From an uncultured Candidatus Peribacteria bacterium (GTDB lineage Bacteria > Patescibacteriota > Gracilibacteria > Absconditabacterales > Absconditicoccaceae): a stretch of 55,948 nucleotides of DNA. Location of the stretch: NCBI GenBank assembly GCA_964501605.1, contig CAZCTB010000065.1, forward strand, positions 1 to 55,948. The letters run 5' to 3'. The notes beneath the pieces are model-generated. The model was given only the letters and a program-made list of their open reading frames with translations, was not told where the DNA came from and did not search any database. Position numbers and translations under genes: made by a program. Within the stretch, counting starts at the first letter, position 1. Every line of letters starts with the position of its first letter. Positions 66-51,921 of the stretch are shown in pieces.

Positions 66-401
66 ATGTGATTAATGCACTTAGAGTGAACAGAACAATT
101 TAAAAAAGAAGTACTAGAATTTGATTGAGTAGTACTTATAGATTTTTGGGCAGAACGATGTGGTCCATGTAGAATTTTAGGTCCAGTATTGGAAGAATTA
201 GCTGCAGATAATGAATGAAAAAATGTAAAAATTATCAAAGCTAATGTAGAAAGTCCAGAAAATTGACCATTGGCGCAAAGTTTTCAAGTGAGTTCTATTC
301 CAGCAGTATTTTTGGTAAACAAATGAGAGGTGGTAAAACCCCTTATTGGCGTAAATCCCAAAGATGTTTATCAAAAAGAAATAGATGCTTTGTTAGGTTA
401 A
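66..401 (+). CDS. trxA: Thioredoxin
   Basis: Table-25 translation gives ...VVLIDFWAE-[CGA]-CGPCRILGPVLEEL...IPAVFLVNKGEVV... This is the thioredoxin fold with a (W)CGPC active site whose W position is a CGA codon. Several in-frame TGA read as Gly. A hairpin plus T-run follows. Confidence 0.9.
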
Positions 402-426
402 ATACAAAATATTAAGTTCAATAAAA

Positions 427-455
427 AAATCCTGATTAATTTCGGGATTTTTTTT
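427..455 (+). terminator. Rho-independent terminator after trxA
   Basis: AAATCC...GGATTT stem followed by a T-run. Confidence 0.7.
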
Positions 456-651
456 ATAAATAAAGGTTTCAAAAACAACAAAATATTAGCTTGTACATAA
501 GACGAAATCACATCATTATTTTTTATTTTATTGTTTCTTATTTTATTTTCCTTGAAATTAAAAGGTGCATTAATAAACATATAACGAAACAACGTTGAAA
601 CATTTAAGCGATACCGCGTTGAAACACATATTTATCGTTATATTATTTATT

Positions 652-2949
652 ATGGCAAAAAATTTAGTAATAGTAGAGTCTCCAGCAAAATCCAATACTA
701 TAAAAAAAATACTTGGAAGTGATTTTGAAGTAAAAGCATCATACTGACATGTAGTAGATCTACCTCAAAAAAAAATATGAGTAGATGTACAAAATAATTT
801 TCAACCAGAATATGAAGTTAGTCCTGAAAAGAAAAAAACTATAGCAGAACTAAAAAAATATGCCAAACAAGCCGAAAAAGTATGGATTGCAACTGACGAA
901 GATCGTGAATGAGAGGCTATATGACGACATGTTACCAACGAATTATGACTTGATATCAAAAAAACAGCTAGAATAGTTTTTCATGAAATTACAAAAAAAG
1001 CCATAGAAAGTGCAGTAGCAAATCCTAGGACCATAGACATGAATTTGGTAGATGCTCAACAAGCTAGAAGGATACTTGATCGTCTTGTTTGATTTGAACT
1101 TTCTCCTGTTCTTTGGAAAAAAATTTCTAGATGACTTTCTGCAGGTAGGGTACAATCAGTAGCTGTTCGTGTGATAGTGGAGAGAGAAAGAGAGATAGAA
1201 AAATTTAAATCTGCCAATTTTTTCAAAACAATTTGAAATTTTATCGGACAATCAAAACAAGATTTTAATGCTACATTGGATATTGATTTTCAAAATATAG
1301 ATGATGTAAAATTATTTTTAGAAAATTGTAAGGATTCGGAATTTAAAATTTCTAGTATAGAGACAAAGCCTTGAAAAAAAACTCCATCAGCTCCATTTAC
1401 CACATCTACACTACAACAAGAAGCTAGTAGAAAATTGTGATTTTCGGTATCTCGTACTATGCAAGTAGCACAAAAATTATATGAGGCATGACATATCACA
1501 TATATGAGAACTGATTCTGTAAATTTATCTCAAGACGCCACCTCAGCTGCACAATCAGAAATCATAAAAAAATATTGAAAAGAATACTCTAATCCAACTG
1601 GATATAAATCTAAATCAAAATGAGCTCAAGAAGCACATGAGGCTATTAGACCAACTCATATGGAAAATGATCTAGCATGAGCAGATGCATCGCAAAAAAA
1701 ATTGTATGATTTGATACGAAAAAGGACTATAGCATCTCAAATGTCCCCAGCAAAAATAGAAAAAACAAAAGCTATCATAGATATCTTAAATAGCAAAAAT
1801 AAATTTATAGCAGAATGAGAGGTAATAAAATTTGATGGTTTTCTCAAGGTTTATATAGAGTGATTGGATGAAGAAAACGATGAGAATAGCTCTATGTTGC
1901 CAAAACTTGTAGAATGAGAAAAATTGGATATGCAACAAATTGTGAGTACAGAAAAATTTAAAAAACACCCACCAAGATATACAGAAGCAAGCTTGGTAAA
2001 AGAATTGGAAAAAAAATGAATTGGTCGTCCATCCACTTATGCGCCCACAATTTCTACAATACAAAAAAGATGATATGTGATTTTAGACAGTAGAACATGA
2101 GAAAAAATAGATTATTCAGAACTAACTTTAAAAAACAAAAGCATTTCTATAGATACAAAATCTCAAAATACTTGAGTAGAAAAAAATAAATTATTTCCTA
2201 CAGATATTGGAAGAACTGTTACAGATTTTCTTATGGAAAATTTCAAAGATATACTTGATTATAACTTTACTGCATCTGTGGAAGAGCAATTTGATAATAT
2301 TGCTACATGAGATATTAAGCGACAAAAAATGTTAGAAGATTTTTATTGACCTTTTCATTCTGAAGTAGAAAAAGCAGAGGGTGCAGAAAGGGCAAGTTGA
2401 GAAAGAATTTTATGAAAGGATCCGAAAACGTGAAAACCGCTTTTGGTTAGAATATGAAGATACTGACCATTAGTACAAATATGATCAGCTGACGATGAAG
2501 ACAAAAAATTTGCAAATATACCCGCATGAAAGACTATAGAAACTATAACATTAGAAGAAGCATTAGATTGTTTTAAATTGCCAAGGGAGGTTTGAAATTA
2601 TAAATGAGAAAAAATTATATCTGCAATAGGAAGGTTTTGACCATATCTAAAATATAAAAATATGTTTGTATCTATACCAAAAGATTCAGAATTAGATCCA
2701 CTTTATATTACACTAGAAGAATCAATTCCACTTATAGATGCAAAGATAGAATTTGAAAAAAACAAGTATATAAATGAGTTTGACAATAAAGGCAAAAAAA
2801 TTCAAATTTTGAATTGAAGATATGGACCATATATAAAGTATGAAAAGAAAAACTACAAGATACCAAAATGATGAAAAGATGCTACAGACCTAAAATTAAA
2901 AGATTGTTTAGAGATTATTAAAAACCAAGATAAGAAAAATAAAAAATAA
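652..2949 (+). CDS. topA: DNA topoisomerase I
   Basis: [73 protein letters not shown] and GRFGPYLKY. I scanned all 766 codons in frame and found no TAA/TAG, but many TGA. 765 aa. Confidence 0.94.
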
Positions 2950-4159: not shown

Positions 4160-6313
4160 TTGGCTAGAAGAAAGTATAGTAGAAGAAAAAAGAAAACATT
4201 AATTCTAAATAAATATAAACTTTGAGTGGTTATGTTTCTCCTTTGATGATTGTATTTTTTTTCTTTATATCTGGCTAAATGATCTCCAATATTTGAAATA
4301 TTAACTAACTATGCTAGTGTGGTTTTTTGAGAAATATGATTAAATATATTTTTTGGTTTGTGTATGCTTGTTTGAATATTGATTATATCAAAGTGATATT
4401 TGATGAATCTTTTGATAAAACAATTTTTAGTTGTTATGGTTTTGGTTTCTTGAATAATTAATTTTCCAATTATAGACTGAGATATTGTCAAATATGAATC
4501 TTTTGGTTGATATATTTCTTGGCCTTTAATAGAACTTTTAAATATGATGTTTGGTTTTCAGGCTACTGCAGTAAAATCTTTTATAATTATTTTATTTGTT
4601 GGTTCTATAGTTCGAGTACTTTATACATTCAATTTTTCTATACCCAAAATAAATGTTAAATTTGAAAAATATAAAAGATCAAAATCTAAAAAAACAAATA
4701 GATCATCAAGATCTGATAGAGAAACAACAAATGCTATTGCAAAGAAAATAAATGAAACGAAACAAGATTTTGGTAAGCAAAATCCTAAAGAAGTTTCTCG
4801 TTCATTTATAAAAACTATGATTAAACAAAAAGCAGAAGAAAAGATTCAAGAAAGGAAGCCAAGGCCTATGATTAAATTTTCATGAGATAAGCCCACATTT
4901 GATATATCTTTGTTAAAGTCTAATGCAGGTGTAACAACTACAATAGACGAAAAATTTTTGATGGATAAAGCAAGATCTTTGCAAAGCAAACTTAAAGAAT
5001 TTAATGTGGCTATAAGTATTGAATGATTTGATCTCTGACCATCTATAGTACAAATTAGGGTTAAGCCAGAAGCTGGCATTGCTATATCCAAAATTGAGGC
5101 TCTTTCAAATGATATTAAATTATCTTTGAAATCTAAATCTCTTAGAATTATAGCACCAATTCCTGGTACTGATTCTGTTTGAATACAGTTACCAAACCCT
5201 AAACCAACAATTGTAAGAGTTTGAGATATGTTGAGTTCAAAAGAATTTCAACAAAGAATGAACAAATCTGATACCAATTTGACTTTATGAAAACAAATAG
5301 ACTGATCTATCATTACAAAAACCTTACAAGATATGCCTCATCTATTGGTAGCTTGAGCTACCTGATCAGGTAAGTCTGTATGAGTAAATGACTTTATATT
5401 ATCTCTTATGTATCAAAATTCTCCATCAGAACTAAAATTTTTGATGGTAGATCCAAAGCAAGTTGAACTAGAACTATATTCATGACTTCCATATATGCTT
5501 TGACCGATAGTTAGCGATCCTGATAAGGCATTGAAACTTCTTAAACGAGCAGTAGATGAGATGGAAAGAAGATATACATTATTAAAAGACAAAAGAGTAA
5601 AAAATATAGAAGAATATAACAAAAAAGTAATATCAGAAAAAATGTATCGTATAGTATTTGTAATAGATGAATTAGCAGATATGATGATGCAAAAAAACAA
5701 GAAAGAAGTAGAAAACGCTATTACGCGTATTGCACAAAAAGCTCGTGCTATATGAATTCATTTGATTGTTGCTACGCAAAGACCATCTGTAAATGTAATT
5801 ACGGGTCTAATTAAGGCAAATATGCCTACTAGAATAGCTTTTGGAGTAGTTTCAGAAATTGATTCAAGGACAATTCTTGGAAGAAAATGAGCTGAAGATT
5901 TGGTATGAAGATGAGATATGCTTTATATAGACCCAACCACAAAATGGCCGGTAAGAATACAGGCCCCATTCGTAGAAACTAGTGAGATAGAAAAGGTTGT
6001 AAAGACACTAAAGGACAAATATATGAGATGATTGTCAGAAGATGATATTTACAATCCAGAAATAATTAAAGCTCTAGAAAGTAAACTTGAAACAGCATGA
6101 TGATCTTATTCTGGATGAGGAAGTTGATCAGATGAAGAACTTATAGAAAAGGCAATACAGGTTATATCACAAACAAGAAAAGCATCAGCCACTTTATTGC
6201 AAAGAAAGCTTAATATTTGATTTGCTAGAGCGGCTAGAATTATGGATGAACTAGAAGATAGGTGAATTATTTGACCACAAGATTGAGCTAGAGCTAGAGA
6301 GATATTTATTTAG
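4160..6313 (+). CDS. ftsK: DNA translocase FtsK/SpoIIIE
   Basis: N-terminal TM region followed by the motor domain: LLVAGATGSGKSV (Walker A, both flanking Gly are TGA), [40 protein letters not shown], and a C-terminal gamma-like winged helix ([23 protein letters not shown]). The TTG start at 4160 ([12 protein letters not shown]) is inferred; the alternative is ATG 4232. Confidence 0.9.
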
Positions 6314-6328
6314 ATTTTTTTAAAACAT

Positions 6329-7156
6329 ATGATAAATGATATCAAAAAAATAAAAACTTCATGGTTAAATATTTTTATTGGATTTTGTGTTTTAACATTT
6401 GTCTTTATTATACAACAAAATTCTGCAAAAGCTGATACAATAATAGTAAAACCCCAATATTCTAGTAGTAGCATGACAGATTTTATAAGTCAAAAATCAT
6501 TAAATTTTTTGGATGAGAATATCAAAAAAGCTAAAATCAATTATCAAAACAATTTTGATATGAATTCAGATTATTCTTTTCAAAAATATATTTCTGATGA
6601 AAACTTATTGAATAATAAAAAATATAAACCATCAGATTTGGTTCAAATAGATACTGAATACATAGTAAATAGGGCTGGTAGACCATTTTTACGTCAACCT
6701 GCACAAATAGCGTTTGAAAAACTAGCTAAAAAATTTAATGAAGATTTAAAAAAAAACTTATATCTTGTTAGTGCCTATAGAACATATAGAGATCAAGCAA
6801 CACTTTTTGAATGATGATGTTCTTCCACTAGGTGTGCAAAAATATGATGAAGTGAGCATCAATTGTGATTAGCTGTAGATATTCATCTTGCTACAAAAAA
6901 TTGATATAATATTTTATGATGAGACAATTTAGATTGGTTGAATGGAAATGCGTATAAATATTGATTTATAAATACATATCGTAAATGAGCAAAAATAGAC
7001 TGAAAGATGAAAGAAGTTCGACATTGGAGATATGTTGGGATACCTTTGGCTACAGAGCTTTACAAAAGGGATATGAGTTTCGCAGAGTATTATAATACCA
7101 CTGTCATTCCGACCGAATACCGCAGTATTGCGGTAGTAGCGGAGGAATCCCTTTAA
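6329..7156 (+). CDS. Peptidase M15 / VanY-like D-alanyl-D-alanine carboxypeptidase with signal anchor
   Basis: SAYRTYRDQATLF, SEHQLGLAVDI, WLNGNAYKYGFINTY and EV-[CGA]-HWRYVG (family consensus EPWH.RYVG). The last ~17 codons and the stop lie inside a GTCATTCC...GGAATCC repeat copy. Confidence 0.85.
7103..7151. repeat. GTCATTC-family palindromic element, variant copy, forming the 3' end of the M15 peptidase CDS
   Basis: gtcattccgaccgaataccgcagtattgcggtagtagcggaggaatccc. Preceded by ataatacca-ct, as in the copy at 9909. Confidence 0.7.
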
Positions 7157-7237
7157 AGTGAATGCAAAAAAGATATTTCCCCATCATTATACTTAGTCGA
7201 GATGATAATTGTTGTTTATATTATAATTAAGTAAAAA

Positions 7238-7810
7238 ATGACAGACAAAGATTTACAAGACAAACTTGAACAAGCTGAAAAAGAAAATAAAAAAAAATCA
7301 AAATCAAAAAAAGAAAAAAAACTACAAGAAAAAATTGAAAAATTTCAAAAAGAATATGATGAACAGACAGAAATGCTCAAAAGAGCACAACATGATTACA
7401 TTAATCTTAAATTTGATTTTGATAGGTTTCAAAAACAAGTAGAAGAAAAAGAAAAAGAAAGTGAATTAAATTCATTAATTTCTAGTGTTAAAAAGTTTTT
7501 ACCATTTGTAGAAGATTTAAGAAAGTCTTTGGATAATATACCAAAGGATAAAAAATCAGAACCATTGGCTCAATGAGTACAGCTTGTTTATGACAATTTT
7601 TTGAAAACTCTAGAGTGAATGAATATAAAACAAATAGAAGCTGTATGATTGGAGCCAGACTCAGCATTACACGAGCCAGTTTCAGTCCAGCCAGTAGAGG
7701 ACAAAAAAATGAAATGAAAAATAGTACAAGAATTTGAAAGATGATTTGTTTATAAAAAAGATAATAAGCAAGTAGTGTTAAATACCTCAAAAGTAATAGT
7801 AGGTCAATAG
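7238..7810 (+). CDS. grpE: Nucleotide exchange factor GrpE
   Basis: K/E-rich coiled N-terminus, then LKRAQHDYINLKFDFDRFQKQ...FLPFVEDLRKSL...HEPVSVQP...VLNTSKVIVG. 190 aa. Confidence 0.88.
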
Positions 7811-8224: not shown

Positions 8225-9904
8225 ATGGATCAGACAATAATAAATAATATACCAAATAAGCCATGAATATATCTTTTTAAAGACAAAAAAGACAATATTC
8301 TTTATATTTGAAAAGCAAAAAATCTCAAAAATAGAGTATCTCAATATTTCAATCCAAATTCAGTACGAAAACAAGATATGTTGAATAAGGCAGATACGGT
8401 AGATTTTTTTGTTGTAAAAACAGAATCTGAGGCTTTGTATTTGGAGGATAATTTAATTAAAAAAAACCAGCCACCATTCAACAATATGCTTAAAGGTTCA
8501 AATAGTTATGCTTATATAAAAATTACAAATGAAGATTTTCCACAAATATTTATCACTAGAAATAAAATCAAAGATTGATCAAAATATATTTGACCAAAAC
8601 ATAATACAATTGAACTCAAAAAATTCTTACAATATTTGAGATATATTATCAAACGAAGATGATGTAAAAAAACCCAATTTAATCAATGAAAAGTTTGTTC
8701 TGATTATCATTTTTGATTGTGTAATTGATGGTGTTTAGTTAATGCCCCGCTTATGAATGAGGGTCAGGGGGGGGCAAAAAAACTAAACCCACCTTCGCTA
8801 CGCTCTTCCTCCCTTCAAAAGGGAGGTACGTATGAAAGTGCGAAAAAAGAATATTCAGATATTATAAAACTAATAGAACAATTTTTCAGATGAAATACAA
8901 AACCAGTTGAAAAAGAGATAAAGCTCCAAATCCAAAAAGCGGTCAATGAAGAAAACTTTGAACGAGCGACTAGATTAAGAGATATTTATTTACAGATAGC
9001 AAATCTTACAGAAAAACAGACTGTAGTACTACCAAAGAGCATTTCATGATACATTTGCCAGATTAAAGAAATCTCAGGTTGGTTTGTTTATATTGTGTTA
9101 AATTTTTACGAATGAAAAATAATTGACGTAATTATCAACAAACAAAACAAAAATGATGGAGATGAAAATTCTGTACTATCGGTACTGGGTTCTGAGCTAT
9201 GAAATTTAGAAAAGATTGATTCAGATAATCATATTGTTTTAAAAAATCCAAAAGTTAAGTTAAACAAAACACAAACCAAAGAAATTTTATCTCTTATGGA
9301 TTGATTTATAGATTCGTATATTATCACACAATCATTTAAAGACGAAAATTTGTTAAATGATATTTTAAAAGACATTCAATCAAAATATAAGCTGAATAAT
9401 TTTCCATATCATATGGAGTGTGTAGATATTTCACATCTTTGATGATCACGAACTAGTGGTGGATTGTCATGATTTTTATGATGAATACCAAATTACAAGT
9501 TATATCGTAAATATAAAATTAATGCCAAAGCATCTAATGATTATGAGGCTTTGAAGGAAGTGATTACAAAAAGATTTAAAGACAAGGAAGACTTGCCAGA
9601 TTTATTTATTCTGGATTGATGAAAAGGTCAGTTGTGAATACTCAAAGATTTTTTACAAGAAAACTGGTTCAAAAAAATATTCGATAAAGTAGACTTTGTC
9701 TCTCTTGGTAAATGATCAGCTAGAAAAACATGATGAAAAATTAAATGAGAAAAAGAAAAAATATTCTATTTCGATTCAGAGATGAGAATTCAAAATATTG
9801 ATTTAAAATATGATCAATCAGATAAAACTATAGTAAAATTACGTGATGAAGCTCATAGATTTGCTAATTCTTACAGAAAAACTCAGATGAAGAAGTGACT
9901 ATAA
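8225..9904 (+). CDS. uvrC: Excinuclease ABC subunit C
   Basis: N-terminal GIY-YIG ([29 protein letters not shown]), UVR motif (ENFE.ATRLRDIY), and VDISHLGGS / LRDEAHRFANSYRK. Carries an in-frame GC-rich insert at 8744-8829. Confidence 0.9.
8744..8829. repeat. GC-run hairpin element inserted in frame in uvrC
   Basis: ccccgcttatgaatgagggtcaggggggggcaaaaaaactaaacccaccttcgctacgctcttcctcccttcaaaagggagg. Contains the hairpin CCTCCCTT-caaa-AGGGAGG. It is far more GC-rich than its flanks and interrupts the conserved C..G.C region. Confidence 0.75.
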
Positions 9905-17121: not shown

Positions 17122-20100
17122 ATGTCTACTGGTAAATTTCAAATCCTTTCAAATCAAGAAAAAGTGAGATCTTCGTCTAATAATGTTTCTTGAGCCGAAT
17201 TTATAAAAAAAGCCAAAGAAGAACTTTTAGAATCCTTTAGCAAAACAAATGATATTGCTAATAGGAACAATTTATCTAAAAAACTTTCTGAAAAAATTTG
17301 AGATGAATGATATCCTAAATGATATGTTATGTTTTGAGGAAAAAGAGTTAGAATTGATTGAAAAAAGTTTCAATCTTTTAAAGCTTTGTATGATGAAGTA
17401 AATAAAGAGCAAGACGAGTCTATAAAAAACAAGAAGCTGGATGATTTAAATCGTGATTTTGCAGAAAGACTTATATTAGATTCTGGTAGTATGATAGAGT
17501 TTGGTTATGATGATAATTTTGAAGGAGGATTATCGGCAGAACAAGAAGCTAAAAAAACATTTGAAAAATTAAATAAATTAGATGATTACAAGGATAAAAT
17601 AGAGCGAGCAAAAAAAATACTTGGAGATGAAACACATTTTGTAGTAAAACGAACCGAAGAACAAATTAAAATATTTAAGGCTATGGAAAAGGTAGCTAAT
17701 GAAGAGTGAGTAGATGTTTCTAATGATAAAGGAATAGAGGAAAAAACAAAAGAAAACAATGAGAATATCCAGAAAATGGAAACATTTGACCCCAAGAATG
17801 AGTGGGGAAAGGAACATAGAGAAGGTAAAGACAAAAAAATATCTGAATTAAAAGAAAAATTAGAAAATGCTGAAGAAAAAAATGAAGAATTAAGAAAAAA
17901 AACTAAAGAATTAGAAAAAATTTTATGAAAAAATAAAAGATCAAACAAAGAATCTAAAGTAGAATCTTTGGAAAAGGTAAATTTGGAAAAATTGGTTAAT
18001 AGAGATAATTTGGCTGATGCTATATATAAGATTAGAGCTAATAATAAATATCCAGTGGGTTCTATAGAAATTAGATCTTGAATATTTTTGGATATAAGAA
18101 AAGAGCCACACTACAATGAATACAAGGAAAAATATATAGAAGCTAAAGGTAATGATGCTAGACTGAAGGATTTAGATACTGAACTTGCAGAACATATTAT
18201 ACTGGGTAATCCAAAAATGGTACCTAAAGATCAGCAATATTATATACAAATAAATAATGATAATAATAAAAAAACTGAAGAAGAGTTGGTTCAAGAATCT
18301 TTGAAATGCAGAGATTCTTTGATAAACCAATGATACAATGTTGAATATATGGTACACGAAGAAAAGTTAGAGATAAACATAAAAGAAAAGGAAAGAAAAG
18401 AAAGAGAACTTCAAGAAATGATTGAGGAAGAAAAAAGACAGCTTAAAAAAATAGAAGAATTAGAGTCTGAGTTAGATTCAAAAAGATTGTATGTAGATGA
18501 AAAAGATAGAGTAGCTAAACAAGAAGAATTAAGAAAATTAAAGATTAAGTTAGATTGACTACAAAGAGATATCTCTATCTTGTTAAAAGAAATTGAAGAA
18601 ATTACGAAACCATGAAAAAGACATCATATTATTAGACAAAAGAAACAAAAAGAATTAACTCCTTATGAAGAAGAGGATATTATACCAAAAAAAGCACTAG
18701 AAATGGATACTGTAATATCTGATATGTGAACAGATGTTCATAGAGAAAGGGTTTCATTGGAAACAGAAGAGGAGCTTAGAGATAGATACAAATGACTGGC
18801 TCGATATAATATACCTATGAGATGATATCTTTTCTTATCTAGATGAGCAAAAAGAAAAAGAATGATAAAACAAAAAATGAAAGCAATGGCAGGGAAAGCA
18901 TTTGCTTGAGACCAATGATTAAATGAAAAAACTGGAGATGCTTCGGATCGTCATGAGTTAGAAATGCAACATAAATTATCTGAAGTGAAAAAGGCTAATT
19001 CAGTTACACTACAAAATCCTTTGGTCAATAATTTATGTAAAGATTATTTAAATTGAATTGTAAATGATAGTAGTTTTCAAACACAATTTAATGCCATAGT
19101 AGATAATGACAGCAATATACAATCCATATTAAAATGACAAAAAATAACACATATATGAACAAATATATTATTGAAGTTAAAACAACAAAAAGCCAAAATG
19201 GATTTAATGAATAAAGTGGATACTGAATTAAATCAATATTTTGTAAACAATAATCAAGTTCATATCAACAATATAAATAAAGAAATAGAAAATTACATAA
19301 AGTTGTATCAAACAAATCCAGACTTTATGAAAGATTATCAAGATTTGATAAACAATGTTCCTTGATCAAGAAATAAATTACAATTGTATTTTCAACATCA
19401 AAAGGCCACTATGAAAATGCAAGTAGAAAATATAAAAATGAATATGAATATTTTGGTAAAATGAAAATCTGCTTATCAAATAGACAATAAAGATCGCCAA
19501 AAGTGACGGATGTATAAACTAGGAAATAAGTTAGATAAATTACCACGATGGGTGCAAACGGCTGGGTTTGTTTGAGTTTCTGTATGAACATGATTATTGA
19601 CTTGATGACTATGAACTTTTGCGGCAGCAGCAATTACTACTTGAGTGACAGCATCTTCTGTGTGAGCATTGAATGCAATCAAAAAACGAACACATCATAC
19701 CAAAGAACAAAATACTCATGAGAAAAATGTAGTAACTGATAATAAAAATGAACAAGCAAGAATAGCTGAACGACAAAATCAAGCATTAAATGGTAAATGG
19801 TACAAACGAAAAACATATAAAGCAAAAAGGCAATTAGCTCTTTATGATCAAACAACACAAGAGAATATTCAGATAGCAAATACAATTAGTGATGCTATTA
19901 CTGATTTGTCGTCAAAAATAGGTACATTGGATGCTAAAGAAGATAATTATATGAAAAAAAATCTAATAGAATGACGAGCTCGTTTCAAATATTATAGAGA
20001 AACTGGACACAATTTCTTGGCATCAAATGAAAAAGAACAAATAGAAAAAGATATGAAAAGATTGGAGAAATCTTTGATATTGTGATCAGGTAAGTTATGA

Positions 20101-22350: not shown

Positions 22351-23457
22351 ATGAAAATCTGAATTGTTTGACTTCCAAACGTATGAAAATCTACACTGTT
22401 TAATGCTTTGACCAACTCTTATTCTGCACCAGCAGAAAATTTCCCATTTTGTACTATAGAACCAAATGTGGGTATAGTGGATGTTAAAGATCCTAGGGTA
22501 GATAGTCTATCAGAAATATCAAAATCCAAAAAAACTATTTATGCAAATATAGAATTTGTAGATATAGCTGGATTGGTTCGTGGAGCAGGGAAGTGAGAGT
22601 GACTTTGAAACAAATTTTTGTCTTACATACGTGAAGTAGATACTGTTGTTCAAGTCTTACGTTATTTCAAGGACACAGATGTGGTACATGTTGAATGAGA
22701 AATTAATCCAATAAGAGATATTGAAATTATCAATACAGAATTAATTTTTTCAGATCTTGAAAAAATTGATAGATTACTTCCACCATTACAAAAAAAGGCT
22801 CAAACTACTTGAGACAAAAATTACAAAAAAGAAGCTGAAATATTGGAAAAAATAAAAACAACATTAGAACAAAATAAGCTTGCAAATAGCATTATCGATG
22901 ATTTATCCGACGAAGATATTAAATTAATCAAATCTTATTGATTTTTAACTATTAAACCCTTTATATATGCGATAAATATTGGTCAAGATGACATACCAAA
23001 CAAAGAACAGATTGAAAAAGAATTACAATCCAAAATAGATGCGCCAATAGTTTTGGTTTGTGCAAAGATAGAATCTGAGATGATGGGTATGTCCAAAGAT
23101 GAAAAAATAGAGTTTGTATCAGAACTACTTGAAATAGACAATGTAGATCATATCCCTACATTAGATGATTTGATTTCACTGGCTTTTGATACTGTTTGAT
23201 TGATGTATTATTTTACCACATGAGAAAAAGAGACTAGAGCATGGACAATAAAAAAGTGATCTACAGCTCCACAGGCAGCTTGAGCTATACATACAGATTT
23301 TGAAAAATGATTTATTAAAGCTGAAATAACAAAATACCAAGATTTTATAGATGCTTTATGACGATCAAAAGCAAAAGAGAAATGAAAAGTTAGACTTGAA
23401 TGAAAAGAATATATAGTACAAGATTGAGATATTATAGTTTTTAAATTTAATGTTTAA
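22351..23457 (+). CDS. ychF: Ribosome-binding ATPase YchF
   Basis: [21 protein letters not shown] (three Gly are TGA), [23 protein letters not shown], the TGS-like C-terminus [24 protein letters not shown]. 368 aa. Confidence 0.94.
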
Positions 23458-23597: not shown

Positions 23598-24689
23598 ATG
23601 AATTTCCACGTAAAAATGGACGATAAAAAAATCAAAGTAGATATAGAGTCTACAAATCTTAAGGACATTTTGATATACTGTAAACCTAAAGAAAGGTTGG
23701 TTCTTATGAAGAAGTTTTGATTAAATTGAGAAAAATGAATACCTCTTCAAAGAATTGGTAAAGAATATAATCTTACTAGAGAAAGAATTAGGCAAATTGA
23801 AACTCAAGCTTTGATGAGATTTAGAAGATTAATAGTTTGAAATCAAACTTATATGGAAGTCTTACAAGAAGCTAAAAAAACTCTAGATTCTCACGGAGGA
23901 TTCTTGGTTGAAGATATAATCATATCAAAACTTGTAAACAAAAATATGTTTAAATTTACAAGACAAGAGCTAAAATTAATACTAGTTTCAGATTTTGATG
24001 TTTCTTTCTTAAAAAGAAATAAATATATCAACAAATCATTCTACTTAGAACCATTATACGAAGATATGCTTACAAAAATGGTGTTATTTATTCAGGACCA
24101 TTTTACAAAGAGAAATAAAAGCCAAGACTTGTATGAATTCGTAGGATTATTAAAAGAAGATTTTGCAAAAGATTTCAAAGAAATAGGATATTTAAAAAAC
24201 GATTTATTCTATATAAATTTTTTTGAATCTATTAGAGATATATCTGTATTTGACTGAAAAATTGGATTACCAACATTTGAAGATGTAAATCCTAAAACTA
24301 TTAAATTAAAAATTCTTTATACTATGAGAAGGATTAATAAACCTATTCATTATCAAGAATTACCTACAAAAATAGTAGAATGGTTCCCAAATAAGTCTGT
24401 AAAATTAAATACTGTTCACAATGAGTTAGTAAAAAACAATGACATATTTGTAAATTTGTGACTTTGAATATATGGTTTAAAAGAACGATGATATAAGTGA
24501 GGACAAGTAAAAGACATTTTAGTTAGAATATTTGAAAAACATAAAAGACCAATGAACGTAAAAGAATTATGCAAAGAAATGTTAAAAGAAAAGATGGTAA
24601 GTCCAAATACAGTTATGTTAAATCTACAAAAGTACAAAGATATGTTTACTAGAGTAGAAAAAGGAGTTTACGAATTAAAAAATAAGTAA
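23598..24689 (+). CDS. Sigma-70 region-4 HTH protein with a C-terminal HARE-HTH-like domain
   Basis: N-terminus: ERLVLMKKFGLNGEKGIPLQRIGKEYNLTRERIRQIETQALMRFRR. C-terminus: INKPIHYQELPTKIV...LGLGIYGLKE-[CGA]-GY. Confidence 0.7.
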
Positions 24690-29084: not shown

Positions 29085-30701
29085 ATGAAAAAGCTTTACC
29101 CAAGGTTTTTATTAAGATTATCTTTGTTTTTTGCTTTATTTATTTGATTCACATTTGCAGAAGACCCAGATGCTTTTTTGGTTCAAGTAGAACCAAGTAG
29201 TTTTGGTGTTTCTGAATCTATAGATGTTACAATTAGCGCAGTTAAGAGTTGAATAATAGTAAAGGATTATATATGAGATGTATTTATAGAAGTAGAATGA
29301 TTAATGCCAGATGATTATGTTGTACCTAGTGATGGCTTGTATTCTTTTCTTATACAAGATCAATGAATAAAGTTATTTTCAAAATGATTAGAAATAAAAA
29401 AACCTGGTACATACAATCTTAAAGTATCAGATATTATAGATGAAACAGTTATGTGAGAGACTACGGTTATCGTTGGTAACGCATGATGAAACTCAAATTT
29501 AAAAGAAGTTGATATAACATCACCAACTGATGGTAGCACAGAAAGGAGTTCTGCAACCAATATTATTTGATCTAGTTCAAATTTACCAAATTCTCCAGTA
29601 GAAATATATTTGAACAACGAATCAGTAGCTAATTGACACACCGATTCTCAATGAAATTTTAATGTTTATATTCAGTGATTACAAGAATGACAAAATCAAA
29701 TACAAGCTAAAATTACAGATATCAGTGATATTGTTTTGTGAGAATCTGATGTTATTGTTTTAAATTATGAATCATTTTCCGATGGTATATACAATTCAAT
29801 AGAAATTTTACCATCCAATAATATAAAACAGTGAGACAAGGTCTCCTTCAACATTTATACTTCAGAAGAAGTTACTTCTTGAGAGTTGGAGTTTAGCGAC
29901 AATCAAAAATTTCCTTTAGATAGATTGTCTCCTTGAGTATTTAATAAAGATGTGGTTTTGACTTCACAGGGTAGTATAGATATTTCTTTGTCTCTTGTTG
30001 TTGATGGTAATAGTGAATATTATGAAGATGTAGCAAATATATTTGTTCAACAAAATGATTCCATATCAAATATTAGATTCCACTCTGTATGAGTAGATGG
30101 TACTTCTGTAAATGTTTCTTGGGATCCTATTTGAGATGCTCCAAAATATAGAATATCTTATGGTACAGATAGAAATAGTTTACAAAAAACTGTAGATGTA
30201 AACTCTACACAAGTTTTAGTAGAAAATATACAATCAAACACTGTTTACTATTTTCAGATATTACCACTAGATGAATGACTTCATGCTTCTTGAGAGCCAT
30301 CAGAAGTGGTTGAATATAACCCAAAAGAAGTTTATTCTTCTTGTGTTGTGAAATGAATTATAGTTACATCAGAAAAAATAGGAGATAAATATTATCTCAC
30401 GCGAGATGATGTTGAAAATGTTACAAAATATGAAGTATACAAATCAGAGCGAGAAGATATGTCTGATATGAAAAAAGTATGAGAGACAACAGAAACTAGG
30501 TTTGAATATAATTTTAATAAATATGCTGAAAGTGATCAATATGCTTATTATCAAGTTGAGGCTATATGTTCAGATTGATCAAGTGTAACAATAGATGAGG
30601 CAAAAGAAGTTAAAGTATGACCATTTGAAAATACTTTATTAGTTATAATTATAGCTTTTTTCTTTTATAGTATATATAGGCTTTACAAAACAGCAGATTA
30701 A
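29085..30701 (+). CDS. Cell-surface protein with Ig-like and fibronectin type III-like repeats and a C-terminal TM anchor
   Basis: Signal peptide (LSLFFALFIGFTFA), beta-rich repeats, two FN3-like units (SVNVSWDPIGDAPKYRISYG; YYLT-[CGA]-DDVENVTKYEVYKSE), and a C-terminal LLVIIIAFFFYSIY. Confidence 0.72.
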
Positions 30702-30738: not shown

Positions 30739-33636
30739 ATGAATAAATTCCCTAAAAAATATAATTATCAAAACACAAAATTAATAAAAGAAAATTGAAA
30801 TAAATGGAAAAACATTGATTCTACACTATTTCCAGCTGATAAAAAATTACATCCTGGTTGTATATTTTCTTTGTACTATCAAGATTTGTTTAAAGAACTA
30901 TATAATTTACAAAATAAGTATTTTAATCCAAACTTATCTTTTTGACTTTCTTCAGATTTTTATTCTAAATTAAATAATCCAAATATTAATTTGAAACACA
31001 TTGAATCTCAGGTTTTTGGTCAAATTAAACAAAACAAAAAATTTGTAAATAAGCTTTGACTTTGATTCAACTTAGATTGAGATATGTTCGTTTATTCAGA
31101 AAAATTTAATCGTTATATAAGAAAGGTTTTTGTTGAACTTTATAATAAATGATCTATTTCTCTTAAAAAAGAAACAATTAATCGAAGTAAGGATTATCAA
31201 ACAAACTTATTCAAAAATAATATAAATGTTAAAGAACAAAAAACAAAAGAATATATATTAAAATATTTCATAGATTCAAAAGGACATGCATTAACTGTCC
31301 CCACAACTAATCTAGAAACTATATTTGCAGATGTTTGAGTAGCTGTAAACCCACAAGATAAAAGATACAAGAAATTAATATGACAAAGTGTGATTGTCCC
31401 CATAACAAATAAAATTATACCAATAATTTGAGATGAGAGTATTGATTCATTTAAATGATCTTGAGTTTTTAGAATAACGCCTGGTCATGATCAGTATTGA
31501 TTAGAGCTTGCACAAAAACATAATTTACCCACAAATATATATGCTATAGATGTTCATGGTAAATTTACAAAAAACGCATGAGAATTTGCTTGAAAGTCTG
31601 TGGAAGATTTTTTTGATAATATAGTAAAATACATAGATGATATATGAAATTTAGAGTCTAAAAACAACGTTTTAGTAAAACAAAATTTTGATGTACGTAC
31701 ATGAGAGAAGTTAGATAGTATCACATTGGATCAGCGAAGTATTAATTATTCTTATTCTTTAGATTATCTTTTACAAAAATTTTCAGATCAAAGAATATCT
31801 TGTTTACCATTAGATTCACAAGAAAATATAATATCTTTATTGGAAGAAAAAAAATCAGTAAATATTTCTAATAAGTCCACAAAATGAGTTTTAGTTCCTA
31901 TAGTAAACTCACACAAATGAGAAACTTTCCCAATAAATGACGATATAGTTCTAGATAGATACAAGATTTCAAAAACAAAAAGAACTTTAACTCTAACTTT
32001 GATTATATTAAATTTGATTTTAGACAATCATTTATCTTGCTCTTTTACTATTGAAGAACTAATTGACGCTCTTTTTTCTGTGGATTTATCTTGAAAAAAA
32101 ACAAAAATAGAAAGATATATAGACATATATAAAACTGAATCAAAGATCAAAACAGAATATAAAAAATGATTAAAGGAAATAGAAAAATTGGTGTGAAAAC
32201 TAAAAAAAGATAGTGAAAATATCAAAATAATTTTAGATTTATTAAAAAATTCTTTTGCTATAAAACTTGATTGAAATAATATCTATTTAGATTTTTCATC
32301 TATATTTGCCAAAAGAGATATATTAGAGCTACAAAGAGAGGATGGGTTTAACAAATCATTTATAGATAGTGTGCGATTTTTGTACAAAAATAATTTATCA
32401 AAAGATTTTTGATCTTATGAAAATATAAAAAATAAAAAATGATTATTTTTTACATGATTAGATGAAAAAGATTTTGTTTTAAATACAATGCTTTTATCGT
32501 TGGAATATTCAAAAAATTTATTATTTTCTTCATTGTTTTTTCATCCTATATTGATTGATATAAATCAAAAAAAGATAGTAAATAATAATTCTAGATTTTT
32601 GATAAAAGATTTTTGAGAAAATCTTAGCATATATTGACCAGATGTTATGAGGCTAGTTCTATTATTGTGAGAAAAAGAATTAAATAACACAAAATTTGAT
32701 ACATATACAGCACAACAATATAGCAATTTGTTAAATAAAATTTGGAATGCATATAGGTATGTTTATAAAAAACATATAGAATGAAAAAAAGAAATTAATA
32801 TAAAAAAAATAATAAAAAAAATAAAATTTGATATTACAAGCTATGATCTTCGAATAATACATGATATAAAGACATTAATAGATGATTTTGAATATCAGTT
32901 CTGAGAAAACAAAATTTTACCACTTTGAAAAAAGGTTATTAATTTTATAAAAGAAAATCTTTGTGATAAATATTTAGAATCTACAAAACTATATTCAGAC
33001 AACAACACTCCAGAAGTTATGATGTTGTCATTTGCCATTTTACTAAAGCTTGCAAAACCATATATTCCTTTTTTTATATCTCATTTAGAGTCTATATTGA
33101 AGATAAACCGAGAAGGTTATGATGTTTTTGAATTTAAAAACTTTGAATTAAAAGAAAAAAATTATAAAATAAATTTGTTAATGGATATAGTAGATAAACT
33201 AAAGAACATAAAATTAAAAATCTGATTAAAAAAGCATCAACATATAGACATATTTGTACAGGCTAATCCTGATTTTTTGGATTTTTTAATACAGAATGAA
33301 GATTTATTAAAATCACTTGTTAAAATATGAGATATTAGATGTGTTAGATTACATGAGGATGTACCAAGTTGATATCAAATAGACAATGTGATAAATATAA
33401 ATATATGAGCAAAAAGAATTTCAGAACAAATAGAAATAAAAAAAGATATTTTGTTAGATTTAAAAGAAGAGTATGAAAACAAAAAAGAACATATACAACA
33501 TCTAAAGTCTTTAATGGCATCTATTTCTCAATCAGGTAATGAAGATGCTTTATCTCAAAAGAAAAAAGAGATACAAAACTTACAAAAAGAAATAGATGAT
33601 TTGGATTTTGAAATTAGTAAGCTTAAAGCAAAGTAA
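30739..33636 (+). CDS. Valyl-tRNA synthetase homologue with degenerate HIGH/KMSKS signatures (965 aa)
   Basis: ValRS editing-domain block: [64 protein letters not shown]. DQ-[CGA]-S matches QWF. Has the C-terminal coiled coil typical of ValRS. All triplets scanned, no TAA/TAG. Confidence 0.75.
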
Positions 33637-35311: not shown

Positions 35312-36640
35312 TTATTTTTTGACAAAAAGTTCACTAAATTTTGTTTTATTATTTTTATACAATCTACTTAAATATCCAGACAATAAACCAAATGGTATAA
35401 AAAATAAATAATTTACCATACTATCCTCAAATACATGTAGAAATAGTCCAATGAATAGTAATAAACTTCGTCACATATATAATCTTTGCCAATGTAATAA
35501 TGCCATTTCTTCTTCTGCAGATCTATTTCATTTGTCAAATTCTAATTTGATATTTTTAAATATTAATAATATTTGAAATATTACTATTGCCCAAATTATA
35601 AATCATACTGTACCAATATCTAACATTATTTGCATAAAATAATTTTCTGGCAACATGTTTCATTCATGATGTATTGCAGGTCATGATGTTCATAATCAAT
35701 GTCATAGTGGGTTGTTTATTATTTCTCAAATATATCATAATTTAGCAGTTACATGTCCTATTGTGGATTCATATTTCAATAAACTCAGTCAGATTATTCA
35801 CAATATTAATCAAACTAATATTCATACAGAAATTTTCTTATTTTTTTTAATTCGATTTTTTGTTAACAATACAAATATCAAAACCATACCAATTATAGCT
35901 GCTCTAGATAGAGTAAGCGCAATTGCAAGTATTCGCAATAATACAAACAAAATATTTAAGTTTTTGAAAGGATTTTTAATTATGTTTGTAATTTTTTTTA
36001 TTCAATTTCATCGCCATAAAAGTATTAATGGTAAAAATGCTACTAATAAATATCCATAATTGTTTGGTCCAGAAAATAATCATTGCCATCTAGTTGTTCA
36101 TTCAAATCCTGTTAGATAGTAAATTGGAGGATTAGCTCCAAAATAAAAATCATCAAATTTTCCATATCCTATGTTCATAAATATTTCTGGTTTTATTATT
36201 TTCATAATTTGCCAAAGAAAACCAAACAATACAATTCATATCAAAAAATACTGAAACCAGTTTATTTGTTTCTTGTTTAGCTTTTTCAATCATACAAATC
36301 ATACAAAACTTGCAGTCAAAAATATTAGCAAATAGAAAAATCAATATTTTATACCTATCATCATGTTGCTAATAGATTGTCATGCTAGCAAAGATATTCA
36401 TAAAGAAAATAGTATTAATACCACAAATCGTATTCGTACATTTTTCCATTTTTTCAAACAATCTTTTACTTTTTTTAAGTTTCATACAAAAGCTGCCAAC
36501 ACAAAAATCAGCCACAACAAATCTCTTATCAAAGATATAATTATTTGTGATTCTCATCAAAGTATTCCATATCACACTACAGTTACGATTATATGATAGA
36601 GTGCTATTAGTCACAAAAATCCTCACAAAAACTTTTGCAT
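35312..36640 (-). CDS. O-antigen ligase / Wzy_C-family polytopic membrane protein
   Basis: GLFSGPNNYGYLLVAFLPLIL, LTLSRAAIIGMVL, GHGLGTSGPA and ENYFMQIMLDIGTVGFI. I scanned all 443 codons and found no TAA/TAG. The ORF-track pieces in this region are off-frame artefacts. Confidence 0.82.
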
Positions 36641-38986: not shown

Positions 38987-39090
38987 TACATACGAAAATG
39001 GAGCATATCCCTGCAGTATTGCGGGGTTTTCTTAGATGAAAAAACAGGATGTATTATTATCTCTTCATCCCTTTATCTCTTTTTGTGTTT

Positions 39091-39429: not shown

Positions 39430-39448
39430 ATCGATAGTGTATAAAAGA

Positions 39449-40666: not shown

Positions 40667-40772
40667 GGTATATATTAGAATAATATAAGGATTAGAGACT
40701 TATAAAATTTTATTAAAAAAAAGAGTAGACTATTTCAATAACCTACTCAATTTATTCATCTCTAAGCGTTTT

Positions 40773-40867
40773 CATACCAAGAAAAGTCCTCATTTATTAT
40801 TATCATTGTTGTTCTCATTGAAGTTTCTATTGTTTACATTGCGTTTCAATTTGACTTTCTGGCGAGA
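40773..40867 (-). repeat. DGR template repeat (TR), sense on the minus strand, about 105 nt upstream of the RT start
   Basis: The sense strand reads tct cgc cag aaa gtc aaa ttg aaa cgc aat gta aac aat aga aac ttc aat gag aac aac aat gat aat aat aaa tga gga ctt ttc ttg gta tg. It is rich in AAY codons. Confidence 0.88.
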
Positions 40868-40964
40868 TATAAAGACATTGCTAGATTATTCTTATCTACA
40901 AACGTTCATACGAGAATAAATATGAATTAAGTACTACAGACAAAACGCCTGTGAATGTCTAAAC

Positions 40965-44625: not shown

Positions 44626-44749
44626 AATCAAATAGACTACTTATAAAACTCGTATATATCTATTATATTCATAAATTACTTTAAACAAAAAAAAACCAAG
44701 TATTTTTGGTATTTTACTTGGCATTTTGTTGTTTTTATGGTGTAGTATG

Positions 44750-47327: not shown

Positions 47328-47813
47328 ATGTTGAAGATAAGATTAGCCAGACATGGTAGAAAAAAAGCTCCATTTTATCGTATTGTACTTACTGAGCACA
47401 CAAAACCAGCGCAATCTGGTTATAAATTAGTTTTATGACGATTTAATCCATTATCTCATACTATAGAGGCAAATGTAGAAGCAATAAAATGATGGATTGC
47501 AAAATGAGCACAACTTTCAGAGAGAGTAGCTAAACTACTTTTTGCTGAAACAAAAGACAAAATGTTTAAAGAATTTTTTGTAGAAAGAGAAAGAACAAAA
47601 TGAAAAGCAAAAGAACAAGAGAAAAAAGAAGATGCTGAAGCAAAAGTAAAAGAAGCAAAAGAAAAAGCTGAGGCTGCAAAAGTAGAGGAAGAACAAAAAA
47701 AGGCAGAAGAAGCTAATGAAGAAAAAGTAGAGAAAAAGACAGAGGAAGTTAAGGAAGAAACAACAAATGATTCACCAGAAGAAAAGAAAGAAGAAGAAAA
47801 TAAAAAAAATTAA
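47328..47813 (+). CDS. rpsP: 30S ribosomal protein S16 with a K/E-rich C-terminal extension
   Basis: MLKIRLARHGRKKAPFYRIVLTEH...LG-[CGA]-FNPLS...WIAKGAQLSERVAKLL. Confidence 0.9.
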
Positions 47814-48938: not shown

Positions 48939-48958
48939 TTTCAAAAAAATAAATATTC

Positions 48959-48989
48959 AAAAACGTTCCAAGTAGAACGTTTTTTTTTA
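48959..48989. terminator. Hairpin terminator between convergent genes
   Basis: AAACGTTC-caagta-GAACGTTT plus a T-run. Confidence 0.7.
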
Positions 48990-49020
48990 TATTAAGTATA
49001 GTTTATAACTAATGTTTTAG

Positions 49021-51921
49021 TTATTCTAGAAATTGTTTTATAGGTTCAGGAATTGTTTGACTATATACTATAGACATATCTAGATCCCATAAAACAGCTT
49101 TTATTTTATCATCAATCATTAAATCATTTGCATAGTCAGAAAAAGCACAAGGACAAGAAAGACATTCAGTCGTTGTTATTGGAGATTGGTTTTCATTGTT
49201 GTCTATGTTTTCAAATCAATAATTAAAACTTCAATAGTTAAAGTCTCACAAAACGCAGTTATTGTTTGCTCATATTTCTGGACAACCATCAAAATCTTCT
49301 ATACCATTATAATTTTCTGGTATTAAAGGACACATATCCAATTCATCTGGTATTCAATCTCAGTCAGTGTCTATTATATTGTTTTTTTCATTATCTCAAT
49401 TATTAAAATATTTTCCATCACATGTGTCTCACCATCAATTATTATTTAAGTCCATTTGATTTTTATTGTCTACCGTAGGACAATTATCTAACCCACATAT
49501 ATTATTATGCATAGAAATTATATCTCGATTTATATTATCCATATTTATACTACAATCTTCATTTTCATATTCTATCAGACCAATTAAATTTGTCATACCA
49601 TCTCCATCAATATCATCGTCACATATATCAGGGATTCAGTCTCAATCCATATCACACTTAAATTGATCCAATGTTCAATTTAGTTTAGCTTCCATACATA
49701 TATCCTTTTTTGTAATAGCAACAGTTCAAATAGTACTAAGATCTATACACTCATCGACAAAAACAGAGTTTTTAGGATAATATATTCATTCTTTATTGTA
49801 TTTAAAATCAAATTTTTTAGGCCACTCATTAAGTTCTTTATCATATATTTCTGTTTTGTCTTCGTTATATTTATTTATCATCATTATGTTTTGTGGTATA
49901 TATCATATATTTTTTATTTCAAAATTAGTATCTTCAAAATAGTTTCATACAAGACTATTTATAGCTGTTTGTATACCATATGATCTTTCCAAAAATTCAT
50001 CTCTTACATATATTGTCAAAAAATTTTGTATTTCTTGATTGTTTTTTAATATTATTTTTTGTGTGATTACACGCGGACCAGAAACCTCATATATATGAAC
50101 CATTTCCAAATTATTGTTTTTTTCTATTTCTTCATTTCACCAATTTCGTTGTATTTCTTTTATATCTTTTTTTTCTATTCAATTTAATTTTGTAGATATT
50201 TTTATACTTTGTCATTTTTTTGGAGCAATATTATTTGCTTCAATTTTCGTAGCCAGTTCATTTTCTCACACAGACAACAACATATTTGCCACCGCTATTA
50301 TCTTTCAGTTTTTAAATCACTTTACTGTGATCATTGTGCTTTTTTGATCTCTAAATATTTTTGTAATCTCGTTTGTATCAAATCTTTCTACAATATTACC
50401 ATCTCAAAAATTCCATTCAAATTTGTCAAATAATCCTTTTTTATCTACTTTAAAATTTACTTCTAAAGGTAAGCGTCAAGCAATTTTATTTGCATCAATT
50501 TGTAAACTATGATTTTCTAATATATTTTTTCCAACTAATATTTTTGTAGAAGCATAGGCTTCATTGTTTATTCCAGTTGCACTAGATCTAATATTATATA
50601 GTCCATTTTCCAAAAAAGTATGGCTTACTTTTTTTCAAATTGCTGTATTTCAATCTCAAAAATTTCGATTTACATCTCATATTATTTCTCATTTTGTTAC
50701 AGCTTCAAAATTTACAGTTACAGGTGCTGTGGTTGTAAGTCCTTCTGTTTTTATGTACATTCATAGATAATTTTGACTATCTTCACAAGCATCTCATATT
50801 CCATTGTTATTACTATCTTTTTGATCTTTATTTGGCACAAATAGACAATTATCCATTCATTCTTCCCATTTAGAAATCACAATTCTTCATAGTTCATCAA
50901 CTATTCATATTGGATTTAAAATTCAGTCACCATCTATATCTTCATCACACACATCTCCAATTCCATCACCATCTGTATCTTTTTGACTTGGATTATAATG
51001 GTTTGGACAACTATCATTCAGATTGTCCATAGGATCACAGTCGTAGTTTTGATCAAAAGAACAATCAATTATTTTAAACAAATTGTACAAAGTTTTCAAC
51101 ACATACTCTCATTCTACCAATTCATGTATTTGTCAGTCTTCAAATTTTTCATGTTCTACAATATTATTATCATACAATATGTTTAATTCTGAAACTGGCC
51201 AATATCATTGTACAATTTCTCAAAATGTTTGCATACCACATTTTTCTAAATTAAACATACAATATTTCATGTATGCTTGCATAGAGTTTTCATTTGGTAG
51301 TATTCCAGACATATTTTCAATAGCATATTTATTTATTGTTTTTCTATCATCTTCATTCAAATTTTCCTCTGGATAAGATCATGGATTCAAGTTTTGCATC
51401 CAGTTTTGTATTTCTATCCAATTTGTTAAATAATTTTGATATACATATTGATCTGCAATGTTCAAAACTACTTGTAAAAATTCTCAAATAGTTGTATTTC
51501 TATTACCACAAAACTTTCCATCACATATTGGGCTTATTCATTCAGGATATCATCTCATCCAAGTATTATCTCACACATAAGCTACACAATAATAATAGCT
51601 TTGACTATTATAAATTCCACCATTATATCATATGTCATCAAAATCTTTTCATGGCAAATTGGTAAAATCGCTCCATCGAGGATTGATATATTTATCTATC
51701 ATCCATTGAGGAGTATTTACACAGTCTTGACAATTTACTGCATTCAAAAGTCTTGTTAGTTCATATCTAGATACTTGATCGCTTTCTATTATCTCATCTA
51801 CTGGTATACCAGTTTGTCTAAGATTATCCAAGAATCATTCATAATTACCAAAACTAATTCCAAAAATAGAAAAACTAATGAACAATATAAATATTCATTT
51901 CCAAATTTTTTTAAATTTCAT
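49021..51921 (-). CDS. Large secreted protein (966 aa) with thrombospondin type-3-like Ca-binding repeats and PKD-like domains
   Basis: Signal peptide (IFILFISFSIFGISFG). [33 protein letters not shown] and further DxDxDG...C repeats. PKD-type motifs VN-[CGA]-NFGDGNT and FEWNFGDGN. I scanned all 967 codons and found no TAA/TAG. Confidence 0.8.

Follow-up and report, generated by a model that had tools for sequence, protein, structure and literature searches.

Codon-level evidence that CGA is read as tryptophan alongside UGA as glycine in a contig of the Absconditabacterales

The stretch of DNA analyzed here (the window) comprises 55,948 bp at 26.9% GC and corresponds to positions 1 to 55,948 of contig CAZCTB010000065.1 from an uncultured bacterium (GCA_964501605.1). 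Its genes include those for a thioredoxin, TopA, FtsK, a VanY/M15 peptidase, UvrC, YchF, SecA, a ValRS-like protein and ribosomal protein S16, and an earlier note on this DNA had claimed that the codon CGA stands for Trp in several of them. Our analysis supports this claim: the contig very probably comes from the Absconditabacterales (candidate division SR1, Patescibacteria), with UGA read as Gly and CGA (together with very rare CGG) read as Trp. Translation with table 11 gave short, broken open reading frames (ORFs). When TAA and TAG were the only stops the ORFs were long and 92.6% of the window was coding; since long ORFs appeared only when TGA was read through, TGA is a sense codon here. 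The gene set used below consists of 46 mechanically called ORFs with these two stops.

With CGA masked as X, SecA, TopA and a 752-aa clade-restricted protein (42370-44640) matched database proteins at 40-97% identity (best matches 57-97%), and the names on these matches were Candidatus Absconditabacterales, candidate division SR1 or 'Gracilibacteria'. Synteny with several Absconditabacterales/SR1 metagenome-assembled genomes was conserved. The earlier guess that the window lies in or near the Absconditabacterales was borne out by the names on the best matches. Codons were compared within the clade using the DNA of eight related genomes (~190 kb in total, SecA identity 57-90%), referred to below as relatives. 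Their ORFs were called with TAA and TAG as stops, CGA and CGG were masked as X, orthologues were aligned and the paired codons were then read; because of the masking, the alignment was unable to favor either Trp or Arg at these codons. Window TGA was paired with TGA 896 times, with GGA 141, GGT 95, GGG 20 and GGC 17 times, and almost never with TGG, which identifies code 25 and not code 4. Translation table 4 (UGA = Trp) was rejected on the basis of this pairing with GGN. TGA was the majority Gly codon of the window (619 in-frame TGA versus 355 GGN, 64%), and it accounted for 55-60% of Gly codons among the nearest relatives and for 26-35% among those at greater distance.

The other in-frame counts over the 46 ORFs were CGA 80, CGG 1, TGG 104, AGA 380, AGG 60, CGT 61 and CGC 14. 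From the 81 mechanical calls of CGA or CGG, ~79 were judged genuine and were spread over roughly 30 genes (156..51678); the CGA triplets at 40863-40865 and 40911-40913 (plus strand) are not to be counted, as they lie in a spurious ORF (40689-40919) over the noncoding template repeat of a diversity-generating retroelement (DGR). CGA and CGG together represented 44% of the Trp codons of the window, compared with 37-54% for the nearest relatives and 22% for an oral SR1 relative at greater distance (approximate, from an unfiltered ORF set), and counting them as Trp raised the Trp content from 0.63% to 1.12%. AGA was the main Arg codon (74% of Arg codons other than CGA and CGG). The low GC, depressed CGN usage and dominance of AGA that characterize the Absconditabacterales code were thus all present in the window. 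The eleven CGA codons and one CGG codon cited in the earlier note were confirmed in position and strand, each in frame within a long TGA-read-through ORF.

To examine the CGA sites against homologues that use the canonical code, window proteins with CGA masked as X were compared with solved structures, and SecA was also compared with 78 distant bacterial genes. This canonical SecA panel was drawn from a SecA-alignment search of genome contigs, in which the other matches were two code-25 relatives. Seven of the 16 alignable CGA sites fell on conserved Trp columns (one each in thioredoxin, FtsK, VanY and ValRS and three in TopA) and three fell on Phe or Tyr columns (SecA, S16 and UvrC); no CGA was found on a conserved Arg column among these 16 sites. 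Trp columns make up ~1% of protein columns, so seven hits in 16 is far beyond chance. In canonical SecA (n = 78), Arg accounted for 4% of residues at the CGA columns versus 64% at the AGA columns. Conversely, the invariant arginines in SecA (DEARTP and RGRSGRQGDPG), FtsK (ATQRPS) and TopA (DREGE, with CGT) are encoded by AGA or CGT, and the per-site codons of the three genes confirmed the earlier observation to this effect.

Among the conserved Trp columns, the active-site Trp of thioredoxin (W-CGPC) is encoded by CGA at 156..158 on the plus strand; Trp was present in three of three PDB thioredoxins, and relatives A and C also carry CGA. The three TopA codons are likewise on the plus strand. 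That at 925..927 (EAIG-x-H, x being the CGA residue) aligned with Trp in the E. coli and M. smegmatis structures, that at 1717..1719 (LYDLI-x-KRTIASQM) with Trp in both PDB proteins and with TGG in relative B, and that at 2320..2322 (GDIK-x-QKMLEDFY) with Trp in E. coli and TGG in relative B. A strong site absent from the earlier list was identified in FtsK (5546..5548, plus strand; ALR-W-xVxEMERRY), where P. aeruginosa and E. coli FtsK have Trp in three of three alignments. The VanY/M15 codon (7019..7021, plus strand; E(P/V)-x-H) corresponds to Trp in four of four PDB homologues (EPWH), and the codon at 31183..31185 of the ValRS-like gene (plus strand; TIN-x-S) aligned to the Trp of VN-W-CP in T. 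thermophilus ValRS. The three aromatic columns comprise the SecA site at 27846..27848 (minus strand; YD-x-LGL), with F in 58/78 and W in 2/78 canonical sequences and TGG in relatives C and H; the S16 site at 47439..47441 (plus strand; LG-x-FNP), with F, F, F and T in PDB S16 proteins and TGG in relative F; and a site in the UvrC endonuclease domain at 9449..9451 (plus strand; DISHLGGS-x-T), with Y in T. maritima UvrC and CGA in relatives. The Trp previously assigned to thioredoxin 156, TopA 925 and 1717 and VanY 7019 therefore matches a conserved residue of known structures, and the aromatic character assigned to SecA 27846 and S16 47439 was also confirmed.

Further sites were informative through repeat units or local context. 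A CGA in an FN3-like unit (30402..30404, plus strand; YLT-x-D), also CGA in relatives, occupies a conserved Trp position that is TGG in the neighboring FN3 unit of the same protein (VSWDP); the Pfam fn3 match covers this TGG-bearing unit. A CGA in a PKD domain (50665..50667, minus strand; VN-x-NFGDG; Pfam PKD/PKD_4 match) is TGG both in relative D and in the next PKD unit (FEWNFGDG). The argument from neighboring repeats made in the earlier note therefore holds for both proteins. A Wzy_C-like O-antigen ligase (weak Wzy_C match, residues 262-318) carries CGA at 35933..35935 (minus strand) within a predicted transmembrane helix (NILFVLL-x-ILAIALTL, context taken from the translation); relatives also have CGA there, and neighboring CGA sites are TGG in relatives B and D. 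In a Sigma70_r4/HARE-HTH protein the CGA at 24486..24488 (plus strand; YGLKE-x-G) is CGA in all three relatives and hence uninformative. A HARE-HTH match below threshold (residues 303-338, 24.9 bits versus a cutoff of 25.9) follows this site closely, and Trp is a plausible reading. The second ValRS-like site, previously described as 'QW-F' (31735..31737, plus strand; LDQ-x-S), is CGA in all relatives, and no solved structure was alignable there.

The codon comparison with relatives provided an independent view. Window CGA (207 pairs) was aligned with CGA in 123 pairs, TGG in 61, CGG in 6, Tyr codons in 6, Lys codons in 4, an Arg codon in 1 and TGA in 1, and window TGG (213 pairs) was aligned with TGG in 119, CGA in 63 and CGG in 3. 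In contrast, none of the 844 pairs (309 sites) involving window AGA contained TGG, CGA or CGG (Fisher test for alignment to TGG, CGA versus AGA, P = 2.8e-47). The same was true of the 109 pairs (43 sites) involving window CGT, for which the partners were CGT, CGC or AGA; CGT and CGC both behaved as codons for Arg. One apparent AGG/CGA pairing was a one-residue offset beside a real CGA codon. When analyzed per site, 71 of the 81 called CGA/CGG codons were covered by relatives; TGG was present in at least one relative at 36 sites, CGA or CGG only at 29 and an Arg codon at 1. Replacements by codons other than those for Trp were mostly Tyr or Phe, and CGA and TGG sites were equally conserved as Trp codons in relatives (54/67 versus 58/71). 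The combination of conserved Trp columns in canonical homologues and interchange with TGG, but with no Arg codon, leads to the reading of CGA as Trp. Judged by these pairings, CGA and CGG act as UGG synonyms, and their separation from the Arg codons AGA, AGG, CGU and CGC is complete.

The sole in-frame CGG (19507..19509, plus strand) lies in a large clade-restricted protein and had been set aside as uninformative. This assessment was overturned, as the codon is TGG in relatives A and C, the two that cover it. Together with the six CGA-CGG and three TGG-CGG pairs, these thin data suggest that CGG is also a Trp codon. A reassignment of CGG only, of the Anaerococcus/RFN20 type in which CGA remains Arg, was rejected because CGA itself behaves as Trp.

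Public protein records of the clade were also examined, using 119 SecA and 119 TopA homologues. The three TopA CGA columns contained 50% W and 50% R, plus one L; the individual counts were W 45 and R 74 at 925, W 82 and R 36 at 1717, and W 52 and R 67 only at 2320. The seven SecA CGA columns contained 40% W and 35% R plus some K, M and F, with W 70, R 48 and F 1 at 27846. Columns corresponding to AGA, CGT and AGG codons of the clade SecA and TopA contained R and K and no W. A column that holds W and R and little else is an abnormal substitution pattern; it is what two synonymous codons leave behind when one of them is translated wrongly. The R residues at these clade columns are database mistranslations of CGA or CGG.

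Several observations weigh against CGA as Trp. About six alignable CGA sites correspond to Q, E, K, N or other residues in canonical homologues, and most of the CGA sites in SecA correspond to canonical columns with residues other than Trp, so that this protein by itself indicates 'not Arg' rather than 'Trp'. TopA 2320 is R in M. smegmatis, and the claim of a Trp column at this site stands for E. coli and relative B but not for this homologue. YchF has E in canonical homologues at the CGA at 23362..23364 (plus strand); the codon is TGG in relatives B and C, and the Trp is clade-specific. Canonical SecA has an invariant Q (78/78, MVQRPL) at the CGA at 27687..27689 (minus strand; residue 216, VLT-x-RPL), where relatives C and H have TGG and the clade column holds R 62 and W 47; this is a clade-specific Q-to-W change, with CGA or TGG throughout the clade. 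Canonical SecA has Q, H or R at 26139..26141 (minus strand; LEA-x-HFGIRK), which is TGG in relatives B, C and H and CGG in A (clade column W 67, R 45, M 7). The CGA at 26994..26996 (minus strand), in a variable SecA column with N, H, Y or E in canonical sequences, is the sole site with an Arg codon in a relative: it is CGA in A, TGG in B, CGA in C, ATG in H and AGA in the distant relative G (contig L001). The 29 covered sites with only CGA or CGG in relatives are uninformative and were counted on the same side. In addition, no tRNA(UCG) or tRNA(CCG) was found by ARAGORN in the window or in the ~190 kb from the eight relatives. A metagenome pattern scan for a Trp-like D-arm without A20, a UCG anticodon and a T-loop gave no code-25 contig with a Trp-like tRNA(UCG) among the at least 120 low-GC, TGA-read-through matches listed. 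Finally, no peptide or aminoacylation data confirming the assignment were found in the literature searched.

The earlier note had also described its evidence as not unanimous, citing SecA and UvrC codons. It was right that these columns are variable or differ in distant homologues, but they provide no evidence for Arg. At SecA 26994 the three closest relatives have CGA or TGG and the two most distant have ATG and AGA, and at UvrC 8963 both covering relatives have CGA. On this pattern, both are clade-specific Trp residues.

These observations were weighed against three other explanations. If CGA were still Arg and the clade had exchanged many Trp residues for Arg, the R residues in clade database proteins would be accounted for, as would R at a few such columns in canonical proteins (M. 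smegmatis TopA and a minority of SecA sequences at position 732); yet the database R residues are table-25 translations of the same codons. Such a history would also need Arg at the Trp positions of WCGPC and EPWH and at further invariant Trp sites, would have this 'Arg' encoded by CGA or CGG only and never by AGA, the codon that dominates elsewhere, and would require columns that alternate at will between W and R while admitting few other residues and never K. The absence of TGG or CGA opposite any of the 309 AGA and 43 CGT sites adds to this, and we regard the explanation as highly improbable; standard Arg decoding of CGA is effectively refuted. An even more remote prospect is a repair of CGA in the transcript, by C-to-U editing for instance, or a false CGA produced by assembly or sequencing. 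Nothing was found in its favor. Editing of CGA would yield UGA, which is Gly in this code, and the relatives carry TGG instead (TGA in one of the 207 pairs), so editing is rejected; identical CGA codons were found again at matching sites of assemblies built independently from different samples.

Ambiguous or transitional decoding, in which CGA is mostly Trp with some Arg or is inefficiently read, is a more serious alternative. No decoding tRNA was recovered, a window CGA is matched by AGA in one relative, and the authors of the eLife study state that only experiment can exclude ambiguous translation (PMC8629427). On the other side, CGA occupies catalytic or structurally essential Trp positions in thioredoxin (WCGPC), VanY (EPWH), TopA and FtsK, provides nearly half of all Trp codons, and sits at sites as conserved as those with TGG. 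Substantial misincorporation of Arg at ~0.5% of all residues would be costly, and no interchange between CGA and Arg codons was seen across the AGA and CGT pairs. We consider ambiguous decoding improbable.

Unambiguous decoding of CGA as Trp can be placed in a mechanism for which the tRNA step rests on published data, since no tRNA(UCG) was recovered from the window or its relatives. The earlier statement that the window lacks a tRNA with this anticodon holds: ARAGORN identified tRNA-Ser(GCU) and tRNA-Met(CAU) only. The ~190 kb of relatives yielded a tRNA-Arg(GCG), a nine-tRNA array, and Leu, Met and Ser tRNAs. The tRNA-Arg(GCG) carries the Arg identity element A20 (code-25 relative L001, 15241-15314) and fits decoding of CGU and CGC in the manner of the Candidate Phyla Radiation, without an inosine tRNA. 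In the Absconditabacterales, tRNA(ACG) is absent, tRNA(GCG) reads CGU and CGC, and tRNA(UCG) and tRNA(CCG) occur in most genomes (PMC8629427). In the available part of the data of that study, Codetta assigned CGA to Trp in 8/8 Absconditabacterales genomes, with tRNA(UCG) in 7, tRNA(CCG) in 6, tRNA(GCG) in 7 and tRNA(ACG) in 0. The supplements of PMC13092985 and PMC8629427 contained no tRNA sequences from the clade.

On this basis, dedicated tRNAs with anticodons UCG and CCG would read CGA and CGG (PMC8629427). Because they lack the Arg element A20 and carry the Trp discriminator G73, they would be charged by tryptophanyl-tRNA synthetase (TrpRS) rather than arginyl-tRNA synthetase (ArgRS), as proposed from the same source. 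CGU and CGC would remain Arg through tRNA-Arg(GCG), because the lineage is reported to lack the inosine-forming tRNA-Arg(ACG), a tRNA able to read CGA as well (PMC8629427). As to origin, very low GC (27%) probably made CGA and CGG rare enough for capture, after which the codons would have spread by synonymous change from UGG to their present share. The authors of PMC8629427 similarly proposed that low GC depressed CGA/CGG usage and allowed capture, and that wobble at U34 couples the fates of CGA and CGG.

An adaptive version of this history, in which CGA was captured and expanded under selection as a Trp codon that could not be misread as Gly, unlike UGG wobble-read by tRNA-Gly(UCA), seems unlikely. 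With UGA at 64% of Gly codons, tRNA-Gly(UCA) should be plentiful. When conserved-site preference was examined, the result was null: CGA showed no excess over TGG among the best-conserved Trp sites, and those sites were split roughly evenly between the two codons. Our data thus give no positive support to spread by selection.

The tRNA searches also yielded some side observations. The nine-tRNA array (Val, Glu, Asp, Thr, Asn, Leu, Gln-CUG, Met and Gln-UUG; L207 505-1793, GCA_023228925.1) contains no UCG or CCG anticodon, flanks the S20 gene and lies ~8 kb upstream of TopA. Among the matches of the metagenome scan, L092 and L096 were rejected as mitochondrial genomes (nad, cox and atp genes) and others as tRNA-dense organellar contigs, and L192 was rejected as a code-4 element in which a tRNA(UCA) is nearly identical to the tRNA-Trp(CCA). 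L192 is an unrelated metagenome contig of 22% GC, with a 23-tRNA array in 2 kb (5757-7788) that includes adjacent tRNA(UCG) and tRNA(GCG) genes.

Other features of the window were noted in passing. A complete DGR occupies 38066-40867 and consists of a target ORF (38066-38974, plus strand) with a variable repeat (VR, 38870-38967), a bAvd accessory gene (39091-39459, minus strand), a reverse transcriptase gene (39449-40699, minus strand) and a noncoding template repeat (TR, 40770-40867). The 98-nt repeats form an inverted pair that was found by blastn, and they differ by 16 TR/VR mismatches; in 15 of these the template base is A. The ValRS-like gene (30739-33636) is extremely divergent: its match to the class I catalytic domain (tRNA-synt_1, profile positions 107-251 of 414) is weak at 31.6 bits, and that to Anticodon_1 scores 29.7 bits. 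Its KMSKS region is degenerate (KKIVNNNSRF) and no HIGH motif was aligned; the protein is nevertheless conserved in relatives (48-83% identity) and may represent a synthetase paralogue that has degenerated or taken on another role. Two adjacent very large proteins of 894 and ~1298 aa (14160-21015) are conserved only within the clade and have no Pfam annotation in relatives; the second holds 10 of the CGA/CGG codons of the window.

A 2021 prediction made with Codetta by Shulgina and Eddy (eLife, PMC8629427), repeated in 2026 (PMC13092985), assigns CGA and CGG to Trp in the Absconditabacteria, and the precedent named in the earlier note was therefore correct. The window resembles the published system in clade, codons, new meaning, UGA as Gly, low GC, AGA dominance and rarity of CGG, and is a further member of it with no essential difference. 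Both analyses show conserved Trp columns; the published evidence consists of Pfam column statistics, to which the window adds interchange of CGA and TGG at the level of codons. The CGA/CGG share in the window lies towards the upper end of, but within, the range implied by the table in PMC8629427. Anaerococcus and the RFN20 Bacilli (Onthovivens) are likewise low-GC bacteria in which an Arg CGN-box codon has been captured for Trp (PMC8629427, PMC13092985), presumably by a Trp-type tRNA whose anticodon has changed at a single base. The change there is confined to CGG, with CGA retained as Arg through tRNA-Arg(ICG), whereas in the window CGA is the main reassigned codon, a change made possible by the reported reliance of the lineage on tRNA-Arg(GCG) in place of an ACG/ICG tRNA. 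Peptacetobacter (CGG to Gln) and Mycoplasma capricolum (unassigned CGG) also altered a rare CGN codon under AT pressure (PMC8629427), but with Gln or no assignment as the outcome and, unlike the window, with CGA unaffected. Table 25 (SR1/Gracilibacteria; Campbell et al. 2013 and Rinke et al. 2013, cited in PMC8629427) shares with the window the heavy use of UGA as Gly, but leaves CGA and CGG assigned to Arg. As recently as 2026, a tool paper handled the clade as plain table 25.

Taken together, our comparisons indicate a reassignment that is real and well supported in the window and that has been known since 2021, so its scientific novelty is low. Sense-codon reassignments are very rare in bacteria, and the window offers a clean, independently verifiable example of one. 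Public pipelines use table 25 or 11 for this clade and as a result place Arg for Trp at ~0.5% of residues, ~79 of them in the window, including the active-site Trp of thioredoxin and conserved Trp residues of TopA, FtsK, VanY and SecA. Public clade records, NCBI-annotated SecA and TopA among them, give Arg for CGA and CGG codons. This systematic annotation error harms homology searches, structure prediction and peptide identification in the Absconditabacterales.

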